Positions 11,463 through 33,180 of a stretch of DNA of 64,000 bases are shown here, piece after piece. This stretch comes from Arenicellales bacterium (lineage in GTDB: Bacteria > Pseudomonadota > Gammaproteobacteria > Arenicellales > JAJDZL01). Both the position numbers and the translations under genes were made by a program. The stretch covers positions 245,637 to 309,636 of the forward strand of contig CBDBFX010000002.1 of NCBI GenBank assembly GCA_965205205.1. The letters are read 5' to 3'. How positions within the stretch are numbered: the stretch's first letter is position 1; the number at the start of each line of letters is the position of its first letter. The notes under the pieces were generated by a model, which was not told where the DNA came from, searched no databases, and saw only the letters and a program-made list of their open reading frames with translations.

Positions 11463-12083
11463 ATGAATGCCATTCAATCGGTACTTGATCAATTAAATTC
11501 GGGCAACAAACGCTTTGTGGCCGGAGAGGGGCTCAACGGCGATGTTTCTCCGCAAAGACGACTGCAGCTGACAGATGGTCAGTCGCCAAAAGCCGTTGTC
11601 GTAGGGTGTGCGGACTCTCGGGTTCCTGTCGAACTGATATTTGATCAGGGACTCGGAGAACTATTCGTCATTCGAGTAGCGGGCAATATTGTGGATGAGT
11701 CGGTATTGGGCAGCGTGGAATTCGCGGTTTCTCATTTGGGCTGTAAACTGGTCATCGTACTGGGGCACAGCAGCTGTGGCGCGGTCAAAGCGACACTACA
11801 TGAAGTAAACCAACCTTCAGGCGATCTCTCCCCCAGTCTGCGTTCAATTGTCAACGCCATAGAACCCGCGGTCCGCTCACTGATGACACATAGTACCGAG
11901 CTCACCGAGGAAAATTTGACGGAACAGGCCATCCAGTCCAATGTCAGGCAGTCGCTTCTGCAGATTTACCAGAAATCGCAGGGAATCCAGTCAGCCGTTA
12001 ATGACAGAAATCTCTCTATTGTCGGTGCGATTTACGACCTTGAGACGGGTACAGTCAAGTGGATTGACAGAATTCCACAGTAG
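11463..12083 (+). CDS. Beta-class carbonic anhydrase
   Basis: GNKRF, CADSRV, FDQGLGELFVIRVAGN and GHSSCGAV; start set at ATG 11463. Confidence 0.93.
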   Translation: MNAIQSVLDQLNSGNKRFVAGEGLNGDVSPQRRLQLTDGQSPKAVVVGCADSRVPVELIFDQGLGELFVIRVAGNIVDESVLGSVEFAVSHLGCKLVIVLGHSSCGAVKATLHEVNQPSGDLSPSLRSIVNAIEPAVRSLMTHSTELTEENLTEQAIQSNVRQSLLQIYQKSQGIQSAVNDRNLSIVGAIYDLETGTVKWIDRIPQ

Positions 12084-13791: not shown

Positions 13792-14130
13792 ATGAATACA
13801 TCCCGACAAATTGAAATTGAGATTGGTTCTCGTTTGGCCAAATTGCGACTTTCACGCAATGTAACACAATCCATGTTAGCAAAAGATGCTGGAATTGGTC
13901 TTCGTACCCTGCGGCGTCTCGAGGTTGGCGAGCCATCGACTCTTGACACATTCCTGCGCGTCGCCATCGCCCTGGATTTGGGAGATGCCATCCTCAGCGC
14001 ACTACCGACGGGTCACATTCGTCCCATCGAGCGGGTCTCGCGAGCCGGTTCCGAGCGTCAGCGAGCACGGCCAAAAAAACAGACTGATCGGAATCCGACT
14101 TGGTCGTGGGGTGACGAATCAATTGACTGA
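13792..14130 (+). CDS. XRE/HipB-like HTH antitoxin
   Basis: IGSRLAKLRLSRNVTQSMLAKDAGIGLRTLRRLE HTH; overlaps the toxin start. Confidence 0.88.
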   Translation: MNTSRQIEIEIGSRLAKLRLSRNVTQSMLAKDAGIGLRTLRRLEVGEPSTLDTFLRVAIALDLGDAILSALPTGHIRPIERVSRAGSERQRARPKKQTDRNPTWSWGDESID

Positions 14131-15430: not shown

Positions 15431-15703
15431 CATGACGCTTGTTTTCCAGATACCTGCACCATCCATTCCGCATCCGTCCCTTCCTGCCGCATCTTCTCAT
15501 AAAGCATTTGTTAGAACTCTTACGAATTTCGTTTCTTCAACATCTGAGTTAACTCCGTCTTATTAACATATTATAATGTGACTGTCAGTAAATACATTCC
15601 ATGTCCGTAGGGGTTGAGGGGTATCGCTTATTTACGCTGTGATCTTCCTTTTCCACCAGTAACGAGCACGGCTTTCAACTAGAAGCAGAGATCGAAAATT
15701 CGA

Positions 15704-16636
15704 ATGAAGAATAATCAGGCACTGTTCGATGATAGCGCTTATACGGATAATCTGCTCCTTGAATACATAAACATACGAGATGAAAAAGATTATCGGCTGA
15801 TACCTATAAGGAAAGATTGCGAAAACATGTGGGATGTTTATTCGAAGTATGCCGATGACAACTTCCTCTCGGATTTCAAAATGCAGTTCTACCCTCGCTG
15901 GTTCGAGATGTACTTGACCTTCTCCCTATTAGAAGCTGGCGTGTACATTACGAAAACAGGAGACGGTATGCCGGATGTGCTTGCAAAGATTGGTGAGCGG
16001 AAAGTCTGGATTGAGGCAGTTTGCGTTGGCCCTGGGGAACCTGGAAAACCTGATTCTGTTCCCGACATGGAACTACTTAAAGTATCTTCCACTCCAGAGC
16101 GCGAGCTAACGCTTCGCACACTCAATGCCCTTCATTCGAAGGACAAGCAATTCAAGAAATATATAGAACACGGAATTGTAGAGCCCGATGATCTTATTAT
16201 TGTAGCAATCAGCTACTGTAATATGGGATTTGAACGGCACTGGATGGCGAAATATATTCGTAGTGCTGTTTACGGCGAGGGTGATCCGATTTTAAAGCTC
16301 GGCTTAGATAATAACAGTCAGATTACTCGATCGAAATTGGAATTTGAGCAGAAAGCAGTCGTAACAAAACGCCCTGGAAGTACGTACGAAAAAGAGATTG
16401 GTGTGCAGAGTTTCATAGATTTTAGTGTAGAGTGTATGTGTATTTCTGCTATCCTCGGATCCTGTGCTTATCCAAAAGATCTTGGGGCGAAAGAACGCGG
16501 GAATGATTTTATTATGTTTCCAAATCTTACATCCGATAGGCCTCTAGCCGGTGTCAGCCTACCTGTGGGGATGAAATACGTATTCACTGAACAAGATGAC
16601 GGATGGTCCGGAAAACTCTGCCAAGCAGGTGGGTAG
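15704..16636 (+). CDS. Hypothetical protein, possible PD-(D/E)xK-like fold
   Basis: 310-aa AT-rich ORF; GMPDV...VWIEAV spacing recalls a PD..ExK-type motif but lacks the Lys. Confidence 0.6.
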   Translation: MKNNQALFDDSAYTDNLLLEYINIRDEKDYRLIPIRKDCENMWDVYSKYADDNFLSDFKMQFYPRWFEMYLTFSLLEAGVYITKTGDGMPDVLAKIGERKVWIEAVCVGPGEPGKPDSVPDMELLKVSSTPERELTLRTLNALHSKDKQFKKYIEHGIVEPDDLIIVAISYCNMGFERHWMAKYIRSAVYGEGDPILKLGLDNNSQITRSKLEFEQKAVVTKRPGSTYEKEIGVQSFIDFSVECMCISAILGSCAYPKDLGAKERGNDFIMFPNLTSDRPLAGVSLPVGMKYVFTEQDDGWSGKLCQAGG

Positions 16637-17530: not shown

Positions 17531-20500
17531 ATGGACGTATTCAGATTTCGCGAAGAGCTCATCGCTGAGTATGAACGTTTTTCCCGTAGTTTCGTCAAAA
17601 TTCGGGCCGATGACATCAATCGTAAAGTCGATTCATCCTATGCTGCAGGCCGTTTCTGGCCGGCACCGCTCATCCAGTTGAATCCAAATTACGAACCGGG
17701 TGATTGGGTCGACAACCTTGTCGAGAATGGTACGCTTGACCACGAATGTAAGAAAATATTCCGATTGAAACACAACAATGACACGGCCGGTGAAAGGCTC
17801 CTGCTGCATCGGCATCAGACCGATTCCATCATGATCGCCAAGCGCGGTGAGAGTTATGTTCTGACAACCGGCACCGGTTCCGGTAAGTCTCTCGCCTACT
17901 TTATTCCCATTGTCGATGATGTGTTACGCCACAATCGTATGGGCAATACCCGAAAGGGTATCAGCGCCATCGTAATTTATCCGATGAATGCGCTGTGCAA
18001 CAGCCAATTTGAGGAACTGAAAAAATACCTGCAGACCGGCTATACAAAAGGCAAGGAACCTGTCACATTTGCTCGATACACCGGACAGGAATCGAAAGAT
18101 GAACGCGATCGAATCGCAAAAAATCCTCCAGACATCCTACTGACGAATTACGTTATGCTTGAACTGATCATGACGCGCTTCCTCGAGACCGACAAGGCTG
18201 TTCGCGAACACGCCGTCGGACTTCGATTTCTGGTGCTTGACGAACTTCACACCTACCGTGGACGACAAGGTGCCGATGTCGCCATGCTGGTCCGTCGTGT
18301 CAGGGAACGATTCAATGAACACCTGCTATGCATTGGAACTTCTGCGACCATGGGCTCGGAAGGCTCACGGGCAGACAGGAATGCCGCCGTCGCACGCATC
18401 GCGAGTCTTCTTTTTGGCTCTACGGTAAGTCCAGGTAATGTTGTTTCGGAAACACTTCGATCCGTAATCGATCAAAATACAAACGCCACTGAATCTGAAC
18501 TTCGAGCCGCAATTGAACGCGGCATTCCCGCTCCCCCCCCCCCTCGAAAATTTGTCCAAGCACCCGATTGCAAAATGGGTGGAAGACAATCTCGGACTGG
18601 AAAAGTCCGGCGACCGGCTTGAACGAATTTCCCGGCCTCTTACGGTTCTCGAAGCCGCCGATGCTCTCGCAAATGACAGCGGTCTAGACGCCAAAACCTG
18701 TCACGACTATCTTACCAAGTTCCTGCTGGTCGCACACAGCAGCCGGAATGAGCAAGGACAAGGCTTCTTCGCATTTCGCCTGCATCAGTTCATCAGCGGT
18801 GCCTGGAACATCTATTCTACACTCGAGGCACCGGAAGAGCGATACCTCACCCTAAACGGACAGCAATATAAGCCAGGCGACCGTCATCGTCTTCTTTACC
18901 CACTCTGCTTCTGTCGAGTCTGTGGGCAGGAATATTTTCCTGTCTGGGGACGGCAGAACGGCAGGCAGTTCCAAACATTTCAACCTCGCGATCTGTCCGA
19001 TCGGTCTAGCGACGACGAAACCGTTCAGTTCGGTTATCTCATGCCTGATCCAACGGAAATGTTCAATTCCGAGGATCTGGAGACACAGTACCCCGAGGAC
19101 TGGCTGGAATTCGGCGGTAAGAAACCCCAACTGAAAAACCATTACCGCCGCCACCGTCCCATCAATGTGCAATTGAACGCGATGGGCGAGGCCATTGGAG
19201 ATGGAATGCACGCGTGGTTCATTGCGGGATCATTCCGTTTCTGCCTGCATCCTGAATGCGACGCTTACTACGGTGGCAATATTCGGAGCGAATTGACCAA
19301 GCTCTCTGGGCTGTCTAGTGAAGGTCGCAGTTCTGCGACCACCGTTCTCGCTCTCTCTTCGCTCAAGCAGCTAAACGGATCAGACCTTGATGACCGCACC
19401 AAGAAGCTCCTGGCGTTCACCGACAACCGACAGGACGCAAGCCTTCAGGCGGGCCACTTCAACGACTTCATTCAGATACTGCTGTTGCGCAGCGCTCTGC
19501 TTGCCGCCATTCGAAGTGAAAGTGATGGATCACTTACTGACGAGTTTTTGACTCAAAAAACGCTCTCCCATCTACACCTTGAAGCGAGCGACTATGCCGC
19601 TACTACCGATGCCAAGGGCATCAGGAGCCAAAATACGCTGAAGGCGTTGCGTGACGTACTTGGCTACCGTCTGTATTTCGACCTGCAGCGAGGTTGGCGA
19701 ATCACCAACCCAAACCTAGAACAACTGAACCTGCTGGAAATCGGATATCGAGAACTCATGAACTGCTGCCAGGATGAAGATGAATGGAACAGGTGCCATC
19801 CACTACTTGGTTCCATCACGCCCGGCCGTCGTTTTGATATTGTTCGTGAACTTCTAGATCGTATGCGTAAAGCACTGTGCATAAAAACGATTTATCTTGA
19901 CCCAAATTTCCAGGAACGTCTGCGTAACCGAAGTTTCAACGAACTGAAAGAGCCTTGGGGGCTTTCGGAAGACGAAAAGCTGTTTTCACACGCACACATG
20001 GTCCCGCGACCGAGAGGACAACACTACCGGCGCCAGAACAGCTATCGAACTTTTCATGTTTCCCATCGATCCGCATTTGGCAGAAGCTTAAAGTCGCGAA
20101 CCATCTGGGGAGCGGACAATTCTCATTATCCATCAAGTTTTGACGAAGGGACTTTCAACAGCATTGTGGATGACATTTTGAGCGTGCTGGAGAAATACGG
20201 ATATGTCGAATCTTCGAAACTCGGAGGTGATCACACCGGCTACCGTATCAATGGTTCAACCCTCGAATGGCGTATCCCTAGCAGGTTGGACACAGATCAC
20301 GATCAGGCCAACGAATTCTTTCGAAATCTATACAGTAATGTAGCCGCATTGCTTGACGGTGATAACCGTCTTCTCCACCAGTTGGAAGCACGTGAACACA
20401 CGGCTCAGGTGGAGACTGAAATCCGCAAAGAACGCGAACGGCGCTTCCGGCAGGGCTTGGAGCCAAATGGCCTGCCCATTTTATTCTGCTCGCCAACCAT

Positions 20501-22766
20501 GGAACTTGGCGTCGACATCTCCACGCTGAATACGGTCTATATGCGCAATGTTCCACCGACACCTGCCAATTACGCTCAGCGGAGCGGGCGCGCCGGACGC
20601 GGTGGTCAACCGGCACTGGTTGTCACCTATTGCGCAGCGAGGTCACCGCACGATCAGTATTTTTTCTCCGAACCAACCCGCATGGTAACCGGTGTCGTCA
20701 GGCCACCGAGCATTGATCTTGCCAATGAGGATCTGATCCGCAGTCACCTGCAGGCGATCTGGCTTGTGGAGACAGGGGTTAAGCTCGGTTCATCCGTGCG
20801 CGATGTGCTTGATCTCAACAATTCCAAAGAACTGCCTCTGCATGATGACATCGCTAAGCAGATCTGCACCGTTCACGCGGTCAAAGAAGGGCACCGTCGC
20901 AGTCTTCAAATTCTCTCGACTCTGACATCAGAATTTTCCACACATGGCGCACCCTGGTACACAGACACATGGCTTGAAAGTGTCATGAACTCCGCGCAAC
21001 GCCGTTTTATCGAAACCTTCGGTCGATGGCGATCGTTTTACCGCGCGACTGCAGATCAGATGAAATTTGCCAACGACATCATTAACAACGCTGCCGCAAA
21101 TGAATCGGAGCGTAAAGAAGCGAAAGCGCGCCTTGATGAAGCGTTCATTCAACAGAATCTGCTTCTTGCTGACACACCATCCATGAATTCCGACTTCTAT
21201 ACCTATCGTTATCTCGCGTCTGAAGGGTTCCTTCCAGGTTACAACTTCCCACGTCTGCCTTTGATGGCATTCATTCCCGGTCGTCGTGAGAAAGTGGCGC
21301 GCGATTGGTTTCTGAGCAGACCAAGGTTTCTTGGGCTGACTGAATTCGGACCTCGATCAATCATCTATCACGAAGGCAGTACCTATCGCGTGAATCGAGC
21401 CTCTCTTTCATTTCGAGAGGAATCAACGGCGACCGTGACGGCTAGGCTTCCCGTGCAGGGGGTTCGTATTTGTTCCGCATGCGGCTATGGTCACTTTAGA
21501 GACCAGAAGAACTACGAGCGTTGCGTTAACTGCGATCAGCGTCTTAGCGGCGGACGATCAATTTCAAACCTGTATCGCATTGAACAGGTATCCACCCGGC
21601 GAGCCAACCGGATCACCTCGGATGAGGAGGAACGCCAGCGCCAGGGGTATGAGATGATCACCACCCTCCGCTTTAGTGAAGAAGACGGTTCTACACGCGT
21701 TGACAGCACCGCCGCCGTGGAGAACGGCGAAAAACTGCTGGAGCTCTCATACAGCCCTGCCGCCCGAATCTGGCGCATTAACTTAGGTTGGCGCCGGCGC
21801 GCGGAAAAATCAATTTATGGCTTCAGTATTGATGCCAATACGGGCGAATGGACGAAGGATTCACAGGCTCCCACCGATGTCGAAGACGATCAGATTCGTG
21901 AAGGGACGAGCATTGAGCGAATTACACCTTTCGTTGAAGATACGCGCAATACCCTCATTCTCCGTCCCGCAACTGATCTCACCGACAAAGCCATGGTCTC
22001 ACTGCAGTATGCAATCAAACGTGGTATTGAACAGGAATTCCAGTTGGAAGAGGCGGAAATAGCAGCTGAACCACTGCCAGACCGCATTAATCGGAAAACC
22101 ATTCTGTTTTACGAGGCCACCGAAGGTGGCGCTGGTGTTCTCACCCACTTGGTCAACGATCCCGGCGCGTTGGCTCGAATTGCCCACAAAGCACTTGAAG
22201 TCTGCCACTACTCATCACACTCGGGAGACTGGGCTGGATTGGATGACCTTAACAGTCTTGATGACGAATGTGAAGCGGGATGCTACCGATGTCTGCTGAG
22301 CTACTATAACCAACCCGATCATCCCCAAATTGACCGGCAGGACAAGGAAATGCTCAGCCTGCTTTGTCGCCTGACGCGCGCAGAGCACGCAGATCTTGAT
22401 CAGCTACCTCGTACCGGCGACAACTTTGATGAACTGTGGAATTTTGCTGGATCGAATCTTGAAAAAAGTTGGTTGACATACATCAGGAAAAATGGTCACC
22501 GTCTGCCTGATCGGGGACAACCTCATCTTGTTGACTTCGATACAAGACCCGACTTCGCTTATACCGATCACCAAACCCTAATCTATATTGACGGCCCTCA
22601 TCATCGCGAACCGCGCAGAGTATCTAAGGACGTCGACCTGACCCGTCGTCTTGAAGACGCGGGATACACGGTCGTGCGCTTCACCGAGGATTGCAAATCG
22701 TGGAAATCTGTCGTCAAGAAGTACGGCTGGGTCTTCGGGCCTGGAAATTCTTTCGCAGGTGAGTAG
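17531..22766 (+). CDS. DEAD/DEAH helicase with DUF1998 and C-terminal Vsr/DUF559-like nuclease; frameshifted at C11 (18533-18543)
   Basis: ORF 17531-18622 has TGTGSGKS, YPMNAL, LDELH and TSAT. ORF 18513-22766 has AFTDNRQDA, PTMELGVD, QRSGRAGR, EGGAG, CEAGCYRCLLSYYNQ and RPDF...IDGPHH. Removing one C fuses them. Confidence 0.88.
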
Positions 22767-22769
22767 GAA

Positions 22770-25661
22770 ATGGAAAATGCATCAACGAAAGTAGCGATCG
22801 AATTCAAGCCGGGAGACTTGGTCAAGGTTCGCTCCCGCGAGTGGGTGGTCTTGCCAGAGACGCGCGATGATCTTCTTAGACTCCGCCCACTTGGTGGGTC
22901 AGAGACCGATGCGTCTCTCATATATCTCCCACTTGAACCGGAGAAACCCACCTCCGCGACATTCGATTTACCCGACCCCAATCGGTCGGGACCCCAAGAA
23001 GCAGGCCTCCTGCTGCGAGACGCGCTTCGTCTGAAACTTAGAGCAGGTGCCGGGCCGTTTCGGAGTTTTGGAAATCTCAATGTCGAACCGCGTGCCTATC
23101 AGTTGGTCCCCCTGCTCATGGCCCTTAAACTGGAGACCGTCCGGCTGCTTGTCGCCGATGATGTCGGTATCGGCAAAACCATTGAGGCCGGATTGATTGC
23201 ACGGGAACTGCTTGATCGCGGTGAAATCGAACGACTGGCCGTCATCTGTCCACCCCATCTCTGTGAACAGTGGCAGCAGGAACTTACGGAAAAATTCAAC
23301 ATAAAGGCCGAAGTTGTCCGCACTGGTACGATCACTCGTCTGGAACGTAGTTTGCTACCAGACGAATCTGTATTTAATGCCTATCCCTTTACCGTGGTAT
23401 CGCTTGACTATATCAAATCTGATCGACGCCGCGAAGACTTTCTACGCACCTGCCCCGAATTTGTCATTTGTGACGAGGCTCATACCTGTACACAATCAAA
23501 TACGAACACCCGCCATCAACGCTACCAACTACTTAAAGGCCTCGCCGAAAGCAACCCACCGCGAGGTTTGGTACTTCTAACCGCGACTCCACATTCGGGT
23601 GACGACACCGCGTTCCACCATCTACTCGGTCTGTTGGATCCGAAGTTCACAGAACTGGCAGACCTACCCGAAGGTGCCACCCGTCGCAGTTTGCGCGAAG
23701 ATCTTGCACTTCACTTCGTGCAACGCCGCCGCGGTGACATCGCCGAATGGAATGATGAGGATACCTTTCCCATCCGCGAAAGTCGAGAAGCAACCTACCG
23801 TCTAACTGGTGAATGGGGTCAATTATTCGACGATGTACTCGCCTACGCGAGAACCATGGTTCAACGAACGGAAGGTGGATCGAAGCTCGAACAGCGCATG
23901 TCATGGTGGGCCGCACTTGCACTGTTACGTTGTGCATCCTCCAGTCCCGCAACCGTCTCACTCGCTCTGAAGACTCGACTCGAGGCAGTTTCCAGAGACA
24001 AAGGTGAGACCGCTGAAGAAAAAGTTTCAAGCTTGGATTCTACGGCACGCGAATCCGTTATGGATGAAGTGACCGATGACTCGCTAGCTTCCACCGAAAG
24101 TACTCCTGCCGGCACGATCAACAGGGTGGAGGACTCTGCGGCACTCAGTGAACTTATCAGTAGAGCTGATGAATTACGCGGCCCCAAAAAAGACGCCAAG
24201 CTCAACACCCTGATTGAAGAGATCAGGAAACTTGTGAATAATCGCTTCCGTCCCGTGGTGTTCTGTCGCTACATCGAAACAGCACATTATGTCGGTGACG
24301 GGCTGTGCAACGCTTTGTCGGAAACGGAGATTAACGTTATAGTAATCACCGGTGAACTCACACCCGATCAGCGTGAAGAACGCGTAGACAATCTCGCGGA
24401 CCTTGACGATGAAATCATACCCGTACTCGTCGCCACCGACTGTCTGTCTGAAGGAGTCAACCTTCAGAACCACTTCAACGCGGTGGTCCACTACGACTTA
24501 ACATGGAATCCCACTCGCCATGAACAGCGGGAAGGCCGCGCAGACCGCTTCGGACAGAAGTCCAGAAAGGTTCGCGCCCTGATGCTCTATGGCGAGAACA
24601 ATCCAGTCGACGGTGCGGTACTTTGCGTGATCATCCGCAAGGCTGAGAAAATTCGTAAGGAACTTGGGGTTTCTGTTCCCCTACCCGCTGACAATAACAA
24701 GGTTATTGAGGCGATCATGAACACCGTCCTGCACAAATCAGGCGTTCATTCCAGAGTCGTCCAATCCACCCTTGATTTTGGAGATATTGAAGCCGAGGTT
24801 GACGACGCATGGCAACGGGCCACAAGCAGATCGAAACCAACGGTCTTCGCCCAACGCCGTCTAACACCAAACGAGGTGCTACCTGAATATCGAAAGGCGT
24901 ATTCAGTCCTAGGTGGGTCCACAGATGTCGCACGCTTTGTACGACTGTCGGCAGCCAGGCTCAACGCACCGCTTGATGAACGAAATGGTTATTACCGACT
25001 ACCTGTCGCACACTTGCCTGATCCGCTGCAGGAACGTTTCGATGCCATCGGATTCACGGGCTCAGCGAAACTCGCTTTTGAGCAACCCACCCCAGTTGGA
25101 GCGACATACATTCATCGCACTCACCCTCTAGTCACAACGCTTGCAGACTTCGTCGCTGAACAGGCCCTCGATCCAGGACTCCCCGACACAGATATTGTAG
25201 CCCGAAGTGGGGCTATTTTCACCAGCGGTGTAACCGTACGTACCGTCCTCTATCTGTTGCGTCTGCGTAGCCACCTCCTAGTTGAGCGGCGGGGCATAGA
25301 CGGCCAGTTTTCGCCGTTCAAGTCTCTTTTAGCTGAAGAGTGCCTCGGCGTCGCCATCCAGGGCAGTAACTCGCCCGAACTTCTTACCGAGGACAAAGCG
25401 CTTTCGCTTCTTTGTCTCGAACCGGCCCGCAACATGGAAAAAGAGCAACAGATTCATCTGATTCGGCAAGCCATCGGTGCATTATCAAATCTGGAAAACG
25501 CTTTCGAAAATGTTGCCCATGAACAGACTCGGCGTCTGCTCGACGATCATCGCCGCATTCGCGAGGCCAGTAATACCAAAGGGCTACGCTACCGCGTCGC
25601 TCCCGCTCTACCAGTCGACAAAATCGGAATCTTTGTCTTCGTACCCCAAACCATATTTTGA
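22770..25661 (+). CDS. SNF2-type helicase (DrmD-like)
   Basis: PRAYQLVP, LVADDVGIGKTIEAG, DEAH, TATPHSG, TDCLSEGVNLQ and QREGRADRFGQ. Confidence 0.92.
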   Translation: MENASTKVAIEFKPGDLVKVRSREWVVLPETRDDLLRLRPLGGSETDASLIYLPLEPEKPTSATFDLPDPNRSGPQEAGLLLRDALRLKLRAGAGPFRSFGNLNVEPRAYQLVPLLMALKLETVRLLVADDVGIGKTIEAGLIARELLDRGEIERLAVICPPHLCEQWQQELTEKFNIKAEVVRTGTITRLERSLLPDESVFNAYPFTVVSLDYIKSDRRREDFLRTCPEFVICDEAHTCTQSNTNTRHQRYQLLKGLAESNPPRGLVLLTATPHSGDDTAFHHLLGLLDPKFTELADLPEGATRRSLREDLALHFVQRRRGDIAEWNDEDTFPIRESREATYRLTGEWGQLFDDVLAYARTMVQRTEGGSKLEQRMSWWAALALLRCASSSPATVSLALKTRLEAVSRDKGETAEEKVSSLDSTARESVMDEVTDDSLASTESTPAGTINRVEDSAALSELISRADELRGPKKDAKLNTLIEEIRKLVNNRFRPVVFCRYIETAHYVGDGLCNALSETEINVIVITGELTPDQREERVDNLADLDDEIIPVLVATDCLSEGVNLQNHFNAVVHYDLTWNPTRHEQREGRADRFGQKSRKVRALMLYGENNPVDGAVLCVIIRKAEKIRKELGVSVPLPADNNKVIEAIMNTVLHKSGVHSRVVQSTLDFGDIEAEVDDAWQRATSRSKPTVFAQRRLTPNEVLPEYRKAYSVLGGSTDVARFVRLSAARLNAPLDERNGYYRLPVAHLPDPLQERFDAIGFTGSAKLAFEQPTPVGATYIHRTHPLVTTLADFVAEQALDPGLPDTDIVARSGAIFTSGVTVRTVLYLLRLRSHLLVERRGIDGQFSPFKSLLAEECLGVAIQGSNSPELLTEDKALSLLCLEPARNMEKEQQIHLIRQAIGALSNLENAFENVAHEQTRRLLDDHRRIREASNTKGLRYRVAPALPVDKIGIFVFVPQTIF

Positions 25662-28600
25662 AAATGATCAGTGCTCGTCGAAATCGCGGATACACCGCCT
25701 TGAAAATCGAAGGGGGCATACTGCCGCCGGAGTACCTTCACACCATCGCTACACTCAAAGCACCTCACCAAGACCGCTCCGACTATGGGCTGTCAGAGTC
25801 TCTAGAAATTAAGGAAGAGATCTCCCGAAGTTGGCAAATTGCCAGCAAACTTCACAAGCGTTATGCTGAGCGTGGCTCTAAGCGTGACCTTTCCGCAACT
25901 CAAGATGACTGGCCAGTCGAGTTGCTACGTTCCTCGTTCGGTTACAACGATCTGACCACTGCCGAAAGTATTACGCGAGAAAATCGAGCCTTCAGGTTAA
26001 CCCATCGCGTCTGTGATGGAGCAGTCCCTCTCCTTTTCTTGACGCCCGACTTCGGCCTTGACAAATCTGACCCGCGTCTTGGATACGATGGCGGTCGTCA
26101 GGCACCATACAACATGATGCAGGAATTTCTCAACACCGATGACACTGCACTTTGGGGAATGGTATCCAATGGGTCGAAACTCCGCATTCTGCGCGAGAAT
26201 CTGAGCCTTACTCGATCCACCTATATTGAAGTTGATCTTGATCTTCTATTCGCCGAAGAGCTATATCCTGATTTTGCGGCTCTTTGGCTTTCTGCACACG
26301 CCAGTCGTCTTCGTCCCTTCACCGACAAACCTTCAAACTGCATTATGGAAGTCTGGAGAAAGGAGGCGCATAAGACCGGGGAACGCGTCCGGGAGAAGCT
26401 CCGCGACGGCGTTACCAACTCAATAAACCAATTGGGAAATGGATTCCTACGACATCCGTCGAACGTTAAACTGCGAGAATACCTAGTAAATGGCAAACTT
26501 TCGCCTGAAGATTATTTTCAGCAACTACTTCGTCTAATATACCGCCTGCTCTTTCTATTAACCACTGAGGAACGCAATCTGCTTCACACTCCAGAGGCTA
26601 CCGACGTACAACGCACAGTCTACGCAGAAGGATACTCACTCTCCCGGCTGCGCGAATACGCTCTTCACCACCGGTACTATGATCACCACCAAGATTTATG
26701 GCTGAGTCTACAAATCATCTTTCGTATGCTTGCTGAGGACACTACGGGCCTTGGGCTTTCCGCTCTCGGAGGACTTTTTCGGAGCGACCAATGTTCCGTC
26801 CTTGACGGTGCCGCCATTGCCAACAGATATTTGCTTGAAGCAGTCCGCACCCTTGCCTATTTTCGATCAGATCGTAGTCTCGCCCGCGTCAACTACAGAG
26901 ATATGGACACAGAGGAACTGGGGTCTGTATACGAAAGCCTACTAGAACTTCACCCCATCATAGATGTTAACAACTGGAATTTCTTTTTTGCAGGCAATGA
27001 CCATAATATTAGGGGATCAAAACGCAAATTGACAGGTTCCTACTATACACCGCCAAGCTTAGTGAGTGAAATTATCAGATCAACACTTGAACCTGTCATT
27101 CAGCAAGCCATCGTTTCCAGCCCAGATAACGCCAGCGCAGCTATACTCGCACTTAAAGTTATTGATCCTGCGTGCGGTTCGGGGCACTTCCTACTTGCAG
27201 CTGCCCGTCGCCTAGCCGAGGAAATAGCCCGCATCCAGTCGGTTGACGGCACGTTGAACGAGAATTCTCGCCAACATGCACTGCGTGAGGTAATGCAGCA
27301 CTGTATCTACGGAGTGGACAAAAATTCGCTCTCTGTCGAGCTCTGTAAAACCGCATTGTGGATCGAAACAATTGAGCCTGGCAAGCCACTCACCTTTCTT
27401 GATTCCCACATACTTCAGGGAGACAGTTTGATCGGTATTCTCGATCCAGATATCATGGCAGATGGGATTCCGAGCAGTGCTTACGATCAATTAACAGGAG
27501 ACAACGAAACTATATGTAGAAGTCTGAAAAAAAATAATCGCCAACCTAACCAGCAGGACTTGTTCGACCAAGATGCGATTCCAGAAGTCGCTGTGGAAAG
27601 TATTGATCTTGATAACATGCCTGAGGAAACACTGGATGATATTGAGCACAAACGTACAAAATGGCAAACAAAAATTCTTGAACAAGCCTATGCTCGCGAA
27701 ACTCTACGCGCCAATCTTTTTGTGGGAACGTATTTCACAGCTAAGACGAAAGAAACCTTTGAGACTGTACCAAGGACCTTGGACATCCAGCGGTTACAGA
27801 GCAACAAACCTCTACGTAGCGGGGTTAAAAAGCTCGTAGGTGATTTATCAATAGAGCACGATTTCCTACACTGGCATCTTGCATTTAATGAGATCATGCG
27901 GGATGGTGGATTCCATGTTATCCTTGGCAATCCCCCGTGGGAAGTCTCTCAACTTAATGAAAAAGAGTATTTTGCTACAATGGTGCCTAGTGTCGCCAAT
28001 TTAGAAGGCGATTTGCGAAAGCGTAAAATTGCTCAACTTAAAAACACTGACCCGAAACTATGGTCCGAGTACCAAAGTTCCCTACGTGGTTTCAATGCCC
28101 GAAACAAGTATTGCCGGAAAAGTGGTCGCTACTCGTTAAGTACGTTCGGAAAACTTAACAGCTATGCCCTCTTTGCAGAAACCTTTTTGCAACTCCTTAA
28201 CCCACGAGGTCGCGCCGGGTTAATCGTTCCTACGGGTATTGCCACTGACGATTCAACCAAGGTGTTCTTTGACCATATCGTTTCCAGACAAAGGCTTGTA
28301 AGTCTGTACGACTTCGAGAACCGGGAAGCGATTTTTCCTGAGGTACATCGCCAATTCAAATTCTGTCTTCTGACTCTGAGTGGCCAAGCCAATCCGGTTG
28401 CCACAGCTGAGTTCGCCTTCTTTCTACATCAAACCGATCAGTTAAAGGATTACACCCGGCGATTAACACTCGGCATGGAAGATATCGCTCTATTCAACCC
28501 TAATACACGGACATGCCCTATTTTCCGAACTCAGCGTGACATGGATATTGCGCGCAAGTTGTATAAACGAGCAGGTGTTTTTTGGAAGGAGGCGAAATCC

Positions 28601-29209
28601 GGTGAAACTGATGATAATCCTTGGGGTGTCAGCTTCATGCAAATGTTCAATATGACGAGTGATTCAAATCTATTCTGGACTAGACAACAATTGGAGGATT
28701 CTGGATGGATGCTACATGGAAACATTTTCGTGAAGGAGAATGAGCGGTATCTGCCGCTCTACGAAGCAAAGCTTTTTTATCAATATGATCATAGATTTGC
28801 CACATTTGACGGCGTTTCTGAACAGCAAATTCGGAATGGCAACGCTAGACCAATGACCATTGATGAAAAATCGGACACAAGTTCTTTAATTACCCCTAGA
28901 TATTGGGTATCCGAGAAAGATTTAGCAGATAGACTCAACTACGATTTAACAGCTACACAATCGTTTACCAGCATGGGGGGGGGGCAGGAGTGTGCTCCAC
29001 ACGCTCAACGAACTGGCTCGCAGCTCGCTCTGCGACTCATCACCAACTCGACAAACAAACGCACGGAACTGTTAGCCATGATACCACGCGTTGCACTCGG
29101 ACATACCGCAGCGGTAATGTTTCTTGGCTATTTTAGGACAGAAATATTAGCTCAGCGACTAGTAGAGAAACAACAGGTCTTTCCATTCTACAATGGTCCA
29201 CTGCAATGA
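25658..29209 (+). CDS. N6-adenine DNA methyltransferase (Eco57I/type IIG-like); C-terminal part lies in the next ORF
   Basis: LGSVYESLL, GSYYTP, DPACGSGHFL, GNPPW, PLYEAK..YDHR and PRYWV. Confidence 0.9.
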   Translation: MKMISARRNRGYTALKIEGGILPPEYLHTIATLKAPHQDRSDYGLSESLEIKEEISRSWQIASKLHKRYAERGSKRDLSATQDDWPVELLRSSFGYNDLTTAESITRENRAFRLTHRVCDGAVPLLFLTPDFGLDKSDPRLGYDGGRQAPYNMMQEFLNTDDTALWGMVSNGSKLRILRENLSLTRSTYIEVDLDLLFAEELYPDFAALWLSAHASRLRPFTDKPSNCIMEVWRKEAHKTGERVREKLRDGVTNSINQLGNGFLRHPSNVKLREYLVNGKLSPEDYFQQLLRLIYRLLFLLTTEERNLLHTPEATDVQRTVYAEGYSLSRLREYALHHRYYDHHQDLWLSLQIIFRMLAEDTTGLGLSALGGLFRSDQCSVLDGAAIANRYLLEAVRTLAYFRSDRSLARVNYRDMDTEELGSVYESLLELHPIIDVNNWNFFFAGNDHNIRGSKRKLTGSYYTPPSLVSEIIRSTLEPVIQQAIVSSPDNASAAILALKVIDPACGSGHFLLAAARRLAEEIARIQSVDGTLNENSRQHALREVMQHCIYGVDKNSLSVELCKTALWIETIEPGKPLTFLDSHILQGDSLIGILDPDIMADGIPSSAYDQLTGDNETICRSLKKNNRQPNQQDLFDQDAIPEVAVESIDLDNMPEETLDDIEHKRTKWQTKILEQAYARETLRANLFVGTYFTAKTKETFETVPRTLDIQRLQSNKPLRSGVKKLVGDLSIEHDFLHWHLAFNEIMRDGGFHVILGNPPWEVSQLNEKEYFATMVPSVANLEGDLRKRKIAQLKNTDPKLWSEYQSSLRGFNARNKYCRKSGRYSLSTFGKLNSYALFAETFLQLLNPRGRAGLIVPTGIATDDSTKVFFDHIVSRQRLVSLYDFENREAIFPEVHRQFKFCLLTLSGQANPVATAEFAFFLHQTDQLKDYTRRLTLGMEDIALFNPNTRTCPIFRTQRDMDIARKLYKRAGVFWKEAKSGETDDNPWGVSFMQMFNMTSDSNLFWTRQQLEDSGWMLHGNIFVKENERYLPLYEAKLFYQYDHRFATFDGVSEQQIRNGNARPMTIDEKSDTSSLITPRYWVSEKDLADRLNYDLTATQSFTSMGGGQECAPHAQRTGSQLALRLITNSTNKRTELLAMIPRVALGHTAAVMFLGYFRTEILAQRLVEKQQVFPFYNGPLQ

Positions 29210-29350
29210 GTAATCATTTACCAATCATTGGGCTAGATTCTGTCAAAGCCCTTCAGGCATTTCGAGATATCACGAATTCGAGAAGTGAACGGACATTTAT
29301 CGTAAACAATATACCGTTTGGGCCTATAGGAAACAACGCACCAGTTATTA
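29018..29350 (+). repeat. About three tandem divergent copies of a ~35-aa methyltransferase C-terminal segment
   Basis: Conserved Arg codons at 29033, 29140 and 29263. The similarity is at protein level (RxITNSxxxRT...IP....G); copy 2 is degenerate. Confidence 0.65.
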
Positions 29351-29877
29351 CACATCAACATTCCATGGCGGTTTCATATGCACTTGTCTTGGGAAATATG
29401 AATAGTCTACCACTTGACTGGGCCGCCAGAATTTCTGTTGGTGGAACTCACATGAGCTTTTTTGTTGTTAAGCAGCTACCTGTATTGTCACCTGAAGAGT
29501 ATCTGAAGGACAGTCCCGCAGGCCTGCAATATGTTCAACTGATCATACCACGGGTTTTGCAGTTGACCTACACGTCAATTGAAATGGCTGGATTCGCAAG
29601 TGATCTAGGTTTCGAAGGTCCACCATTTCGTTGGGACGAGGAACTTCGTCATAAATTGCAGTGCGAACTGGATGCAATTTTTGCCCACATGTACCAGCTC
29701 AGCCGAAAAGACCTCGAATGGATCTTGGATGCTCCACCGCCTAGTTCATCCTTTACAGTTCTAAAGAAAAACGAGCTGAATAAATTCGGCGAATATCGCA
29801 CCAAGCGTTATGTGCTCTTGGTATTTGATGCACTGCATCGTGGAGAAATGCCTACACTTTGTGACACCTACGAATAA
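29206..29877 (+). CDS. C-terminal (target-recognition) part of the methyltransferase as a separate ORF
   Basis: FRDITN, NSLPLDWAAR, QLPVL, FRWDEE, ELDAIFAHMY and GEYRTKRYVL align with the C-terminus of 49626-53807; ATGA overlap with the upstream stop. Confidence 0.85.
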   Translation: MSNHLPIIGLDSVKALQAFRDITNSRSERTFIVNNIPFGPIGNNAPVITHQHSMAVSYALVLGNMNSLPLDWAARISVGGTHMSFFVVKQLPVLSPEEYLKDSPAGLQYVQLIIPRVLQLTYTSIEMAGFASDLGFEGPPFRWDEELRHKLQCELDAIFAHMYQLSRKDLEWILDAPPPSSSFTVLKKNELNKFGEYRTKRYVLLVFDALHRGEMPTLCDTYE

Positions 29878-29929: not shown

Positions 29930-30760
29930 GTGAATATAGATCAGCCAAGACAATTTCAACATTACATCCCCAAGTTTCAAATTAAATTGTTCGTGAAGGA
30001 TTCAAAAGAAGGAAAAGTGTGGTTTTTGAATAAATCTACAGGTAACATCATAAAACAAGCGCCCAAGAAAATTATGGGTGATAAGAATAGATTCCAAGCA
30101 TTCGAAAATGATAAGGGTGAAATTATCAACCCAGAAATAATACTATCAAAAATTGAAAATAAAGCAGCCCCTGTAATCAAAAAAATTGTAAAGCGGACCT
30201 TAGCTGGTGAAGTTCCAAATTTGGAACTACAACAAACTGAAACATTGTGTGAGTATTTATATAGATTGAATTCCAGAAATCCACAAAACTATGTGCAAAT
30301 GAAGATTGATTCCCCAATATTTGATAATTCAATGAGAGAAGTTTATAAACATCATGGTTTGGAATTCGAAAGTGGTAAAAAGGAAATAGAAGGTCATCGT
30401 AAGCTTGCAAAAAATTTAGTTGCGAGTGGGCAAGTAGACTTTCAAGTAAAGGATATGCAGGATTTCGTCGCGAACTACGATGTTGACTATATTCGTATTT
30501 CTAGCGATGAAAAAGATAAAGAATTCGTTTTGGGAAGTTCTTATCCAACTCTATATTCTACTAATGGAAATGTAACAGGCATATTTATTATGGTGGTCCA
30601 TCCACGCATATCTCTTGTATTCAAATGTCGTGATGGCTATTCCACAATGAATACCTTTGTAAGTACTGGAGTTGATTTAGTTAATCAAATAATTTTCAAT
30701 GCATCTGATTACTTAGTAGCAAAGAACAAGGAAACTCTGAAACCGTTTACTCCAACATAA
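29930..30760 (+). CDS. DUF4238-like protein
   Basis: N-terminal QHYIPKF and LSKIENKAAPVIKKI; very AT-rich. Confidence 0.7.
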   Translation: MNIDQPRQFQHYIPKFQIKLFVKDSKEGKVWFLNKSTGNIIKQAPKKIMGDKNRFQAFENDKGEIINPEIILSKIENKAAPVIKKIVKRTLAGEVPNLELQQTETLCEYLYRLNSRNPQNYVQMKIDSPIFDNSMREVYKHHGLEFESGKKEIEGHRKLAKNLVASGQVDFQVKDMQDFVANYDVDYIRISSDEKDKEFVLGSSYPTLYSTNGNVTGIFIMVVHPRISLVFKCRDGYSTMNTFVSTGVDLVNQIIFNASDYLVAKNKETLKPFTPT

Positions 30761-31223
30761 TCAGTGTCTGCCAGAAAACGCCCATTTCGCATAGATCGTC
30801 CGGCGATGTTGAATTTTTGAAGATTCGGTTCGAGAAAATTTCAGACTTCCTGACATGGTAACCGACTTCAGCGGTGGTTCACGGATGAACAGGTCTGTCA
30901 AATCAGTGGTTTAACGTTCTTCAACTGCGGCTTTCTCCCGATCGGGCCGTCCAATATGGCCAGCTGTAAAAATCTCTCGCCACAGATTCGATCATGATAC
31001 CTCAGTGTCCGTCGGTCGGGGGTTGAAATCACCGGATGACACCCTGGCCGCCGCCCGCTCGCCGGCGGCATCTGAAAGATCCCATCCCTCCGGTGGTCGG
31101 CCGTTGTCGGTCGTCGGTGCGGTTGTAAAAGAGCGCGGAAAAAGTGACAAAAAGTCCTCCGCATCAGACGGCTGCGGTATAAATAAGAACATAATCATCA
31201 ATACATTATAGCAGGATTCCGAC

Positions 31224-31497
31224 ATGCTTTACACAGACGCTGTCCAGCAGCCCCTGGAACTGATTCCCGCGCAGGAGACGAACATCTGCGGACCGTTCTC
31301 CTTCGTGGTCGACCAGGGCATGACCTACTACTTCAACTACCTGTCGCCGGTCGACTGCCATCCGCGCGATGACCGCCCGGCCATGCTGCTGCGCATCGGC
31401 CGCCTGCGGCAGCTGAATCAGCTGCCGGTGAAGGATCTGATGCGCGCCTTCGGTGTGTCGCGGGCGACCGTGAAACGGGTGGCCGACCGGTGGGAGG
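31224..31497 (+). pseudogene. Transposase N-terminal HTH fragment
   Basis: DLMRAFGVSRATVKR HTH; the sequence switches to IS4 DNA at about 31498. Confidence 0.6.
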
Positions 31498-32190
31498 CGG
31501 AAGCGTGCGGGGCGCGAGGTGCGGCTGGCGTTGCGGGCGGCGCGGGTGCGGCTGGCGCCACCGCGGCGGCCACCCGCAGGTGCGGACACGGCGCCGATTG
31601 AGATGCTGGCGGTCAGTGCGATTGAAGCGGACCCGCCGGCCGGAGAGGAGCCGCTGCACTGGCTGCTGCTGACTACCGAAGGACAGGCCGATGCCGACGG
31701 TGCCAGCACCGCCCTGCGGCACTATGAGCTGCGCTGGACCATTGAGGAGTACTTCCGCACCCTGAAGACTGGCGCCGGCATCGAGGCGCGGCAGCTGGAC
31801 CATGCCGATGACCTGCGCAAATGCCTGACGTTCGATGCCATCACCGCCTGTGAGGTGTTCAGTCTCGACCGGCTGGCGCGCGACCGCCCACAGACGCCGG
31901 CCGACGAGGTGGTGAGTGAAGATGACCTGCTGGTGCTGAACACGCGACTGGACGATTACGGCATCCGCCGGCCGCAGCCGCCGCCCGGCGATGTGCCGGA
32001 CATCCGCAGTTTCGTCGTCGATGTGGTCCGGCTGGCGGGTTTTCATCCGCGTCGCAGTCAGCCGCTGCCGGGCATCATGAAACTGTGGCAGGGCTATGTG
32101 CTGCTGCGGGAGGCGGTCTTCACCTATCGCTCGCTCAGAAGGCGAGGCATGATACCAGAATGAATAGATTCAACTGTGGGATGTTGTGAG
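31498..32190 (+). mobile_element. 3' fragment of the IS4-like element (second copy)
   Basis: Highly similar to 5851-6542, including YELRWTIEEYFRTLKTG and the right end ...GGATGTTGTGAG. Confidence 0.93.
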
Positions 32191-33180
32191 GTCGCCGACC
32201 GACCGGCGGCGCACCACCGGGGTCGAACCGACGGTGACCCTGGTCTTCGACCGCGAAGGCTGGAGTCCGGCCCTGTTCCTGCGCCTGGCCGCCCAGGGTG
32301 TCGCCTGCATCACCTGGCACAAGAACGCCAAGGGCGACGATTGGCCCACTGAGGAGTTCACCGACTGCGAGGTGCCGATCGACGGCCCGGCGAAAACCAA
32401 GTGGACCACCGTGCGTCTGGCCGAACGGCGGCTGCGACTGCGCGGCGGCCCCGAGGTGCGGCAGATCCGCCGCCTGATGGACGACGGCCGGCAGGTGCCA
32501 CTGATCACCACCCATCCGAACCGACCGATGGCCGAGATCGCCGGCGCCCTGTTCTCGCGCTGGGCGCAGGAGAACTTCTTCAAATACATGCGCGACGAGT
32601 TCAACCTGGACGCCCTGCTGGAACACGCCCTGCAGCCGGTCGACCTCGACCGGCGGGTAGTCAATCCTGAATACCGCGCCGTGCAGAAGATCATCGACCG
32701 GGTGAACAAGACCCGCGCGCGCCGGCTCGCCAAGGCGCACCCCACCGGCACGGCCGACCAGCTGACCGAGATCGCCCAGCTGGAACAGGAACTGGTCCGC
32801 CTCAAAGCCCAGCGCAGACAGCTGCGCAGTCATGTCCGCGTCGGCGACCTGCCGGTCGAACGGCAGCCCGAAGCCCTGCCGCCGGCCAAGCGGCTGTTCA
32901 TCGATCTGGTGCGCATGATCTGCTACCACGCCGAGACCCGCATGATGCCCTTGGTGGGCGGCGACAGCGCCGAGCAGCCCGCCGGCTGTTGCGCACGCTG
33001 CTGTCCGCCGATGCCAACCTCATCCCCGATCACTCGCACAGCGTGCTGCGCGTGGAACTGCTCGGCCTAGCCAATGGCGCCACCGAACGGGTGCTGCGGC
33101 CGGTGCTTGACGAACTGAACCGCACTCGCACCTGTTATCCCGGCACCGAGCTGCGAATGGTTTACGACATCGCCCGCTGA
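32191..33180 (+). pseudogene. Transposase C-terminal part, frameshifted near 32980
   Basis: VFDREGWSP and SRWAQENFFKYMR DDE-like motifs; continues in ORF 32989-33180. Confidence 0.75.

Follow-up and report, generated by a model that had tools for sequence, protein, structure and literature searches.

What is the use of a homopolymeric tract that lies in the middle of a DNA methyltransferase gene and is followed by three versions of one short protein segment, not all of them in the same reading frame? The question is raised by a 64,000-nucleotide (nt) stretch of an Arenicellales bacterium genome (contig CBDBFX010000002.1, positions 245,637 to 309,636 of the forward strand), which we refer to as the window. 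The gene forms the 3′ end of a three-gene operon, behind a YprA-like helicase and an SNF2 helicase, and by sequence the operon appears to be an anti-phage system of ARMADA type I (DISARM-related), with the gene encoding its PglX/DrmMI-like methyltransferase. An initial annotation of the window, made from the sequence without database searches, took the segments for a stored repertoire of target-recognition cassettes and saw in them a possible undescribed way to switch the specificity of a restriction-modification system. We find that the layout is conserved in relatives from many phyla, that the repeats in front of the segments have unit lengths that are never a multiple of three, and that purifying selection acts on the segments in a frame-specific manner. 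A conserved, repeat-driven switch among three reading frames is, in our judgment, very probable. Whether the switch as a whole amounts to a choice between reader pieces, with a probable change in recognition and an off or weak state, is a matter on which we are evenly divided.

The methyltransferase junction in the window

The last conserved element of the N-terminal part of the methyltransferase is a PRYWV motif (28895–28909; this and all other features of the junction are on the plus strand) that is kept in relatives. A tract of ten guanines, G10, follows 66 nt past it (28975–28984), and this simple-sequence repeat is the candidate frame selector. With ten guanines, the methyltransferase frame, which we call frame β, continues through copy 1 of a 33-residue segment (29021–29119; 45.4 bits against a profile built from 178 distinct segment sequences) and ends in a product of 1183 residues (25658–29209). 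This N-chain matches the Pfam families Eco57I (3.4e-20), N6_Mtase, and MmeI_Mtase as well as the PADLOC model DrmMI (7.7e-77), and it comprises the catalytic domain, the first half of the recognition domain, a linker encoded by the tract, copy 1, and an unconstrained tail. Its stop codon, TGA at 29207–29209, overlaps an ATG at 29206–29208 to form an ATGA (29206–29209). The ATG opens the C-chain, a product of 223 residues (29206–29877) that holds the last strand of copy 2, copy 3, and the remaining recognition domain with its helical part. The C-chain is 30% identical (E 1e-26) to residues 1183–1385 of a 1393-residue paralogue encoded on the minus strand of the window (49626–53807), which lacks a repeat and serves as our single-copy reference, and ∼60% identical to its counterparts in two genomes of the same genus (G006 and G013). 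As the initial annotation had noted, the paralogue has a single segment. Copies 1 and 3 both align to it.

The other two copies lie in frame γ, which is frame β minus one. Copy 3 (29251–29349), within the C-chain, scores 33.2 bits, which is low for a copy 3 (relatives mostly 34–59). Copy 2 (29128–29226) has decayed. Aligned with seven relatives, it has lost conserved residues, it is interrupted by a TAG at 29134–29136, and with 2.0 bits it fails the profile if judged by score alone. Because 59 relatives carry an intact copy 2 at exactly this position and in this frame, scoring 30–59 bits, we consider it a decayed homologue rather than a chance resemblance; the claim that it belongs to the family is thus borne out by position and frame and not by its score in the window. 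The spacing between successive copies is 107 and 123 nt. In all of these particulars (G10, PRYWV, the positions, frames, and spacing of the copies, the ATGA overlap, and the TAG in copy 2), the earlier description of the sequence was correct.

A tract of eleven guanines would enter the frame of copies 2 and 3, and the TAG at 29134–29136 is, as had been pointed out, the sole stop in this frame between the tract and 29206. With nine guanines, translation would enter the third frame, α, which ends at a TAG at 29073–29075. Because of the stop in copy 2, G11 no longer yields a fused enzyme, and G9 yields a short α product; with either length, the N-chain would be cut short. Since copy 2 is dead, the window keeps the split form only. 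By its sequence, then, the switch is half decayed here, and only G10-type lengths, which correspond to the present β state, would give a full two-chain enzyme. The notion of a stored repertoire therefore does not fit the window itself, in which one productive frame is left.

Conservation of the layout among relatives

We searched 41 related genomes by DNA and scanned genomes with an alignment of the C-chain, keeping one genome per species. The scan gave 80 loci, mostly from metagenome-assembled genomes, which together with the window make up 81 sources. The DNA search found the two same-genus homologues, in which PRYWV is followed by (GAGCC)9 in G006 and by a poly-C tract (C12) in G013. In both, copy 1 lies in one frame, which ends in a stop. 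A second frame, uninterrupted between the repeat and the gene end, contains an intact copy 2, copy 3, and the C-terminal part. Both genes are currently read in the third frame, stopping ∼30 codons past the repeat. The subfamily is present in three of the 31 genomes of the genus, whose other paralogues are unbroken frames of 1354–1656 codons. A further same-genus genome, without the full gene, retains a 79-codon remnant that is 60% identical to the end of the C-chain (L013; G024:C1:2710000-2710170).

The 80 loci come from Alpha- and Gammaproteobacteria, Acidobacteriota, Chloroflexota, Rhodothermales, Acidimicrobiia, Gemmatimonadota, Latescibacterota, Binatia, Thermodesulfobacteriota, and Cyanobacteriota. 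Counting tandem copies in homologues with a profile, as the initial annotation had proposed, gives at least three matches in 68 of the 81 sources, and a single copy is thus not the rule. The canonical pattern, with copy 1 in frame β and copies 2 and 3 in frame γ, is found in 59 sources, with spacings of 106–113 and 114–123 nt. The noncanonical sources include nine variant patterns, three loci cut by a contig end, and one locus without a match (L078); eight cyanobacterial loci have one copy, 25 codons past PRYWV. Many bin names among the relatives resemble those of what we take to be marine sponge symbiont studies.

Within a locus, the copies are 31–39% identical in protein and 48–49% identical in DNA. 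The same copy compared between loci is 48–55% identical. Because the identity of the same copy between loci exceeds that between copies of one locus, the triplication must be old, must predate the spread of the gene, and has not been erased by homogenization; the initial claim that this is not a recent duplication holds on these figures. Concerted evolution of the copies was rejected for the same reason. The C-chain keeps 50–69% protein identity across more than ten phyla, a degree of likeness that points to wide horizontal transfer of the gene.

Five sources (L048, L050, L055, L071, and L087) have two complete C-terminal modules in tandem, 36–45% identical to each other, of which the first is shortened in L071 (103 codons). 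Except in L087, frame γ leads from copy 2 into the first module. The stop of that module overlaps, in L048 and L055, with the start of the second as ATGA, and the second module has its own copy 3. A related subfamily in the protein collection combines a repeat, a long linker, one segment, and a module of the first kind. The two-module loci resemble an enlarged form of the same principle, in which one recognition part or another would be chosen. Two other loci (L062 and L070) contain a fragment of a second C-terminal module.

The repeat and its unit length

A repeat lies between PRYWV and copy 1 in 48 of the 52 canonical loci that include PRYWV. The unit lengths are 1 (six loci), 2 (three), 4 (14), 5 (14), 7 (six), 8 (four), and 14 nt (one), none of them a multiple of three. 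There are 26 distinct units, repeated up to 61.8 times, and the gap between repeat and copy 1 is 25–31 nt in most loci. Inserts of up to ∼100 residues encoded by the repeat are tolerated. The G10 of the window is of the same type, an in-frame repeat with a unit that is not a multiple of three, as is characteristic of contingency genes.

As a control, repeats were called over 597,937 nt from 60 loci, of which 11,364 nt belong to the junction. Units that are not a multiple of three were called 62 times inside the junction and nine times outside it, whereas units that are a multiple of three were called 18 times outside and never inside. Because only the former occur in the junction, selection there appears to be for the ability to shift the frame and not for a repeat as such.

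There are signs that repeat length differs between close relatives. Two loci that are 95–96% identical around the junction (L075 and L079) carry 9.75 and 19.75 copies of AGCC and are assembled in frame β and frame α, respectively. For the window, the run data consist of assembled contigs from four runs, in which minority tract lengths are invisible. G10 is identical in the contigs of three runs of one study, and a contig of a run from another study (X4), otherwise identical over 351 nt, has G9 at a depth of 4.1, which may be an error. A pattern scan of metagenomes for the tract with its flanks, at tract lengths from 7 to 14, returned no stretches. Of the means of selection that the initial annotation had offered, slippage is supported by these results, given the repeats with units not a multiple of three in 48 of 52 relatives and the occurrence of all three frames in assemblies.

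We also considered transcriptional slippage or programmed ribosomal frameshifting in place of slippage of the DNA, and rejected both, since 42 of the 48 repeats have units of 2–14 nt and the assemblies differ in frame at the DNA level. To our knowledge, slippage at the RNA level is not known for units of this length. On homopolymers, including G10, it is possible as an additional source of mixed products.

Two further observations concern sequences near the repeat and elsewhere in the gene. The stretch of ∼30 nt between repeat and copy 1 (28985–29020 in the window), compared over 57 distinct canonical sequences, contains a near-invariant T at −25, CT at −17/−16, and TGGC at −7 to −4; these bases could reflect a signal in the RNA or DNA, a conserved amphipathic peptide in frame α, or a motif in frame γ that contains Trp. 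Extra homopolymers (G12, C13, and G10) occur elsewhere in the methyltransferase gene of four loci (L037 4240–4251, L084 4239–4250, L024 2761–2773, and L061 234–243) and may be second switches; in L084, it is from the G12 tract onward that a frame runs open to the end of the gene.

Three reading frames and the selection on them

All three frames are met in natural sequences. The 48 repeat-bearing loci are assembled in frame α (20 loci), β (14), or γ (14), and the four loci without a repeat are in γ (three) or β (one). Gene-called proteins of all three states are present in the protein collection, where they are named at most “N-6 DNA methylase.”

The frames end, or remain open, at conserved places in the 59 canonical loci. 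Frame α is closed within copy 1 in every locus, with the stop in 42 loci at +58, counted from the first base of that copy, and is open across copy 1 in none. Frame β stops at +183, +186, or +189 in 44 loci, and in the same number an RTGA is found at the stop (GTGA in 27 and ATGA in 17). Frame γ is open through the gene end in 58 loci. It is also open across copy 1 in all 59, against the 0.30 of cases expected from synonymous resampling, and by the same method frame β, which 45 of 59 loci keep free of stops throughout the first 25 codons of copy 2, would be expected to be so in 0.24 of cases. The ATG or GTG that starts the C-chain is at the same codon in 51 loci and one codon further in five more, even where frame β stops earlier. 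A Shine-Dalgarno-like 4-mer precedes this start, at −18 to −5, in 20 of 44 loci, a proportion that speaks neither for nor against a ribosome-binding site of its own. Judging from the overlap of stop and start, we infer that the synthesis of the two chains is translationally coupled.

The entropy at the three codon positions was determined for the 42 loci with an exact 107/120 spacing. For positions 1, 2, and 3, it amounts to 0.98, 0.49, and 1.46 for copy 1 read in frame β, 1.05, 0.58, and 1.51 for copy 2 read in frame γ, and 0.93, 0.52, and 1.72 for copy 3 read in frame γ. The frame in which this pattern appears changes over from β to γ at the end of copy 1. These codon-position entropies lead us to conclude that the β product, through copy 1, and the γ product, through copy 2, have both been under purifying selection.

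A four-strand piece of the recognition domain

To place the segment in a fold, we turned to the last 653 residues of a natural protein that is locked in frame γ (L030), modeled with AlphaFold2 from a 79-row alignment at a predicted local distance difference test (pLDDT) score of 83 and a predicted template modeling score of 0.83. The stretch between PRYWV and copy 2 has a pLDDT below 50, and the helices that follow exceed 90. Copy 2 is modeled as four short strands (residues 406–410, 424–428, 431–433, and 438–441; pLDDT 67–87), and copy 3 has a pLDDT of ∼31–35. The model matches the recognition halves of M.BseCI (Z score 15.8; 360 residues aligned with a root-mean-square deviation of 3.6), CamA (15.6), M.TaqI (14.1), BrxX/PglX (∼13), and MmeI (10.3), and Foldseek gives E values down to 6.9e-10. 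The model thus has the recognition-domain fold of TaqI/MmeI-type (gamma-class) adenine methyltransferases, and in it the segment is a four-strand piece of that domain. The three segments are accordingly what the initial annotation had taken them for in kind, true paralogues of one portion of the recognition domain that are retained behind a tract prone to slippage. Fold, form, and position all suggest that this is the same piece as in MmeI.

The two chains of the β state are predicted to associate. A complex of the N-chain of the window (residues 760–1183) with its C-chain scores 0.87, 0.86, and 0.87, versus 0.00 for the best of three controls; the mark set for this score is reached by 58 of 80 solved complexes and by two of 110 mismatched pairs. 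The runs share at least 83% of contacts, and the pLDDT of the partner is at least 83. The predicted interface includes residues 1123, 1125–1141, 1143, 1152, and 1154 of copy 1, which is in contact with the C-chain at residues 62 and 66; copy 3 (residues 16–48 of the C-chain) contributes just residues 19, 22–23, and 26–27. This result may reflect the likeness to solved one-chain relatives, as the two chains are halves of a split gene.

Fused natural variants keep one intact copy, with the others decayed: copy 2 in P0049 and P0057–59, copy 1 in P0061, and copy 3 in P0054. Together with the models, this suggests that the domain has one slot that any copy can fill and that the N-proximal copy takes it.

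The copies differ at the two turns of the segment. At position 12, Glu predominates in copy 1 (44 of 59) and copy 3 (50 of 59), and copy 2 has mostly Gln (34) or Arg (10). At positions 26–30, copy 1 most often has SDSGT, copy 2 SNKAP, and copy 3 GNSAP. In the first turn, positions 8 and 11 covary perfectly (mutual information 1.01 bit, entropy 1.12). Among 177 copies, the pair is Arg-Asp in 76 and Asn-Asn in 59, and the mixed pairs Arg-Asn and Asn-Asp do not occur. Copies of one locus have different pairs in 54 of 59 loci.

A proposed switch among three frames and its alternatives

The reading that we prefer is as follows. Midway through a TaqI/MmeI-type recognition domain, the repeat would encode part of a disordered linker, with three old paralogous copies of the reader piece behind it. 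Replication slippage at the repeat would move cells among the three frames. In frame α, translation would stop ∼20–30 codons past the repeat and leave an N-chain without a segment. In frame β, copy 1 would be read up to the RTGA stop, whose RTG would start the C-chain with copy 3 and the rest, to give a two-chain enzyme with copy 1 in the domain. In frame γ, an unconstrained linker, copy 2, copy 3, and the C-terminal part would be read through, to give a one-chain enzyme with copy 2 in the domain. The most likely purpose of such an arrangement would be phase variation of the defense system, which picks the copy of the reader piece that is installed and includes an off or weak state. By analogy with a simpler switch in Helicobacter pylori Type IIG enzymes, the outcome would probably be an altered recognition of the bases beside the methylated adenine. 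The copy-specific residues at the two turns and the covarying pair are indirect hints that the copies may differ in specificity. Slippage in vivo, a copy seated in the domain, and any change of specificity are the steps that we supply to the observed layout. The initial annotation had remarked that no invertase or reverse transcriptase lies nearby, and none need be invoked.

Several points weigh against this reading. The placement of copy 2 (frame γ) and copy 1 (frame β) in the domain comes entirely from predicted models, and when the N-chain is modeled on its own (AlphaFold2, mean pLDDT 70.7, 32-row alignment), copy 1 has a pLDDT of just ∼27–34. A search of the Protein Data Bank with the C-chain profile gave no matches up to E 10, and Pfam likewise has no relevant family for any of 42 C-chain members; the fold comparisons match MmeI, TaqI, CamA, and BrxX in ranges rather than residue by residue. 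Were the slot filled by the N-proximal copy in every case, copy 3 would need another use to account for its strong conservation. The obvious candidate is frame α with a C-chain provided in trans, yet just 20 of 44 loci have a Shine-Dalgarno-like word ahead of the C-chain start. The Arg-Asp/Asn-Asn pair may reflect nothing more than a structural contact. Across phyla, the segments are well kept (48–55% identity between loci), whereas determinants of specificity usually vary more. In the lineage of the window, the sole difference in tract length is the one contig of depth 4.1 flagged as a possible error, and all three runs of the other study carry G10. Finally, the window has one productive frame, so its own switch may work as plain on/off.

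The last point leads to the strongest competitor of reader-piece choice, which we consider possible but doubtful: a plain on/off switch with redundancy. Here the split enzyme of frame β and the fused enzyme of frame γ would do the same job with the same specificity, frame α would be off, and the switch would tune the off-frequency of the ARMADA system. Copies 1 and 2 would then exist only to let the recognition domain fold in two of three frames, a corollary that we hold with the same reserve. The segments are indeed conserved and not hypervariable, a single intact copy of any kind suffices in the fused natural variants, the repeat-less loci are locked in γ (three) or β (one) and never in α, and the window retains one productive frame. 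Repeat-driven on/off variation is, moreover, the common case among methyltransferases, as in the G tract of pglX (PMC4365076). What an on/off switch leaves unexplained is the long retention of three diverged copies with copy-specific turn residues. It also fails to explain why copy 3 is the best conserved although the models seat copy 1 or 2 in the domain, and why 5 of 81 sources have two complete tandem C-terminal modules (36–45% identical), with an ATGA at the module junction in two. The predominance of frame α in assemblies (20 of 48) would be odd if the off state were harmful and acceptable if it were neutral.

The bolder form of reader-piece choice is a frame multiplexer with three working settings, in which copy 3 would act in trans in frame α, copy 1 in frame β, and copy 2 in frame γ. 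One ARMADA system would then cycle at high frequency through three methylation and restriction specificities without a recombinase, in a design spread by horizontal transfer across more than ten phyla, and the two-module loci would be its enlarged version. We put this forward tentatively and think it rather unlikely in full.

A third account, frameshift buffering, holds that all frames give an equivalent enzyme (frame α through copy 3 on a separate C-chain, β through copy 1, and γ through copy 2), the repeat being a tolerated hotspot or a variable linker. It would make sense of three copies for three frames, of a C-chain start that is kept even where frame β stops earlier, of the about equal frequency of the three states in assemblies, and of the tolerance for repeat-encoded inserts of up to ∼100 residues. 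If the frame were irrelevant, however, units that are a multiple of three would be expected at the junction, and there are none against 62 inside, compared with 18 against nine outside. Neither would purifying selection on copies 1 and 2 be expected if copy 3 in trans sufficed, and the RTGA overlap ties synthesis of the C-chain to frame β. We regard buffering as improbable.

Still less probable is a broken gene or a homopolymer sequencing error, with the extra copies as debris. Homopolymers are error-prone in long-read assemblies, copy 2 of the window is decayed and contains a stop, and the helicase gene of the same operon is also split at a homopolymer. Against this stand the identical G10 in contigs of three runs, the repeats in relatives, 42 of 48 of which have units of 2–14 nt and are no homopolymer errors, the frame-specific purifying selection and the stop positions across 59 loci, and the intact copy 1, ATGA overlap, and C-chain of the window itself. 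The least tenable account is that of a cassette array from which one copy is chosen by deletion or recombination, the other means offered in the initial annotation: three tandem paralogous segments, the few fused natural variants with one intact copy, and the loci with two whole C-terminal modules would suit it, but a DNA identity of 48–49% within a locus is too low for homologous recombination, the spacing is fixed at ∼107/120 nt in 59 loci, the contigs of four runs contain no joints or deletions and no reordering was seen, and the layout is explicable without a recombinase.

Relation to known switches

The nearest precedent is found in the Type IIG enzymes JHP1272 (Hpy99XIV) and HP1353–HP1354 (HpyAXVI) of H. 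pylori. There, a second homopolymer adds a small domain that resembles a portion of the regular recognition domain, and the added piece ousts the regular one and alters recognition at −2 and −1 (Krebes et al. 2014, PMC3936762). The piece is described as four short strands with the recognition residues at the turns that join strand 1 to 2 and strand 3 to 4 (PMC3936762). In MmeI, the contacts at these two positions are made by Glu751/Asn773 and Ala774/Arg810 (PMC4833311). The H. pylori genes and those studied here thus have in common that a tract in an MmeI-type methyltransferase gene decides the translation of a duplicated four-strand recognition piece, with three paralogous copies in our case and strands that are taken from a model. 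The two systems differ in that the H. pylori enzymes, as published, have two copies, one homopolymer per switch, and two states, the extra piece lying at the C terminus of one chain. The present genes combine three copies, spread over two frames, with a third frame that stops, many types of repeat unit, one state that would be a two-chain enzyme formed through a stop/start overlap, and an ARMADA/DISARM-like host system found in many phyla. A change of specificity has been demonstrated in H. pylori, whereas for the present genes it would follow by analogy. Since a homopolymer-selected duplicate of a recognition-domain piece had been published for these enzymes, calling the specificity switch undescribed was an overstatement.

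Other variable restriction and defense genes are less similar. The Cj0031/Cj0032 genes of Campylobacter jejuni are reportedly a plain on/off case, without a duplicated recognition piece or a productive second frame. A poly-G tract in this large methyltransferase-containing restriction gene fuses or splits two frames (as cited in PMC9881135). Homologues of DrmMI of class 1 DISARM, which belong to the same methyltransferase family, also vary within populations, and they lie in DISARM-like loci that have YprA and DUF1998 in one gene; their variation is described as site-specific inversion between inverted repeats, in contrast to slippage and frame choice without a recombinase as proposed here (Milman et al. 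2023, PMC9881135). In the Pgl system of Streptomyces coelicolor, a G tract in pglX, which is of the PglX family like the present gene, causes high-frequency on/off phage resistance (Sumby and Smith 2003, cited in PMC4365076), on the cited description without alternative segments, unlike the present gene. Type III mod and Type I hsd phasevarions share simple-sequence repeats in methyltransferase or specificity genes and random switching, but as described in PMC5909438 and PMC7383803 their repeats toggle expression, and variants of specificity arise by allele exchange or recombination and not from paralogous pieces in different frames. The layout reported here was not found described in the literature that we searched, which comprised open-access papers and bioRxiv without supplements.

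If our interpretation is correct, this would be the clearest case yet of a bacterial gene built for reading in all three frames behind a hypermutable repeat, with its own selected module for each frame. Repeat-driven phase variation, known mainly from host-adapted pathogens, would then be a conserved part of the newly named ARMADA family and would occur in uncultured environmental bacteria of many phyla. About two-thirds of these genes look “broken” in assemblies and are probably working states of a switch. Should the copies indeed differ in specificity, they would provide a compact, recombinase-free way to vary a restriction-modification barrier and a natural guide for the engineering of MmeI/PglX-type recognition.

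The defense operon and its surroundings

The first gene of the operon encodes a YprA-like helicase and is split into two open reading frames, both on the plus strand. The 5′ frame (17531–18622) contains the DEAD/ResIII part (Pfam DEAD 4.3e-27; best PADLOC matches to DruE models) and is severed from the rest at a C11 homopolymer (18533–18543), where the loss of one base would fuse the two. The 3′ frame (18513–22766) contains Helicase_C (1.3e-10), the MrfA Zn-binding (DUF1998) domain (Pfam MZB 6.4e-11), and a C-terminal DUF559/Vsr-type nuclease (1.9e-4; residues 1347–1393), and matches the PADLOC DruE model at 3.8e-55. It is followed on the same strand by an SNF2 helicase gene of the DrmD/BrxHII/RapA-like kind (22770–25661; Pfam SNF2-rel_dom and Helicase_C), whose product matches the PADLOC models DpdE (2.3e-201), DrmD (7.1e-89), and BrxHI/II as well as NCBIfam RapA (7.2e-37); the NCBIfam DrmD model gives 332.5 bits, under its cut-off of 610. 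In 53 of 80 related loci, the methyltransferase has an SNF2 homologue upstream of it.

ARMADA type I has been described as a YprA-like helicase with a Vsr-type nuclease, a BrxHII/RapA-like SNF2 protein, and a PglX-like methyltransferase, in this order (Bell et al. 2025, PMC12458937). We assign the operon to this type because it agrees with that description in gene order, in the Vsr-type nuclease at the C terminus of the helicase, and in the resemblance of the helicase to DruE. The helicase of the window combines a DUF1998/MrfA domain with a Vsr-type nuclease and is closest to DruE, although its gene is split at C11, and the order of YprA, SNF2, and PglX-like genes is the one described, as judged by domain and profile matches and by position rather than by placement in a YprA tree. 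The published description lacks a repeat, three segment copies, and a split form, all of which the window and its relatives have; in the main text of the paper, as distinct from its supplements, the terms “frameshift,” “phase varia,” and “simple sequence” do not occur (PMC12458937). Class 1 DISARM, in contrast, has separate genes for DrmA, DrmB, the PLD nuclease DrmC, DrmD, and DrmMI. In the window, the helicase and DUF1998 are in one gene, and no PLD domain was found among the reading frames scanned with Pfam. By its gene content, the operon thus appears to be related to class 1 DISARM and not to be a member of it, even though the PADLOC DrmMI model matches the methyltransferase (7.7e-77).

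The tract in the helicase gene is restricted to this genus, where it is found in the window and in G013, in which a C19 splits the gene in the same way at the identical place; in G006, a frame of 1766 codons runs unbroken and contains no tract. A frame-shifting repeat in the helicase gene is absent from all 16 loci with the helicase downstream. The genus seems to vary the nuclease-helicase gene in addition to the methylase.

On either side, the operon is flanked by genes (13886–16636 and 29930–33070) that look like parts of a defense and mobile island. They include a HipA-like kinase (13886–15430), a protein with weak PADLOC matches to PD-T7-1 and PD-T7-5 (15704–16636), a DUF4238 protein (29930–30760), and a transposase fragment (32186–33070). 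Tracts of at least 10 nt number four in the 64 kb, counting G10 and C11. The two others are both C10: one (11073–11082) lies ∼300 nt upstream of a beta-carbonic anhydrase gene (11376–12083), and the other (61769–61778) lies within the first codons of a 915-residue minus-strand reading frame (59045–61792) without a Pfam match.

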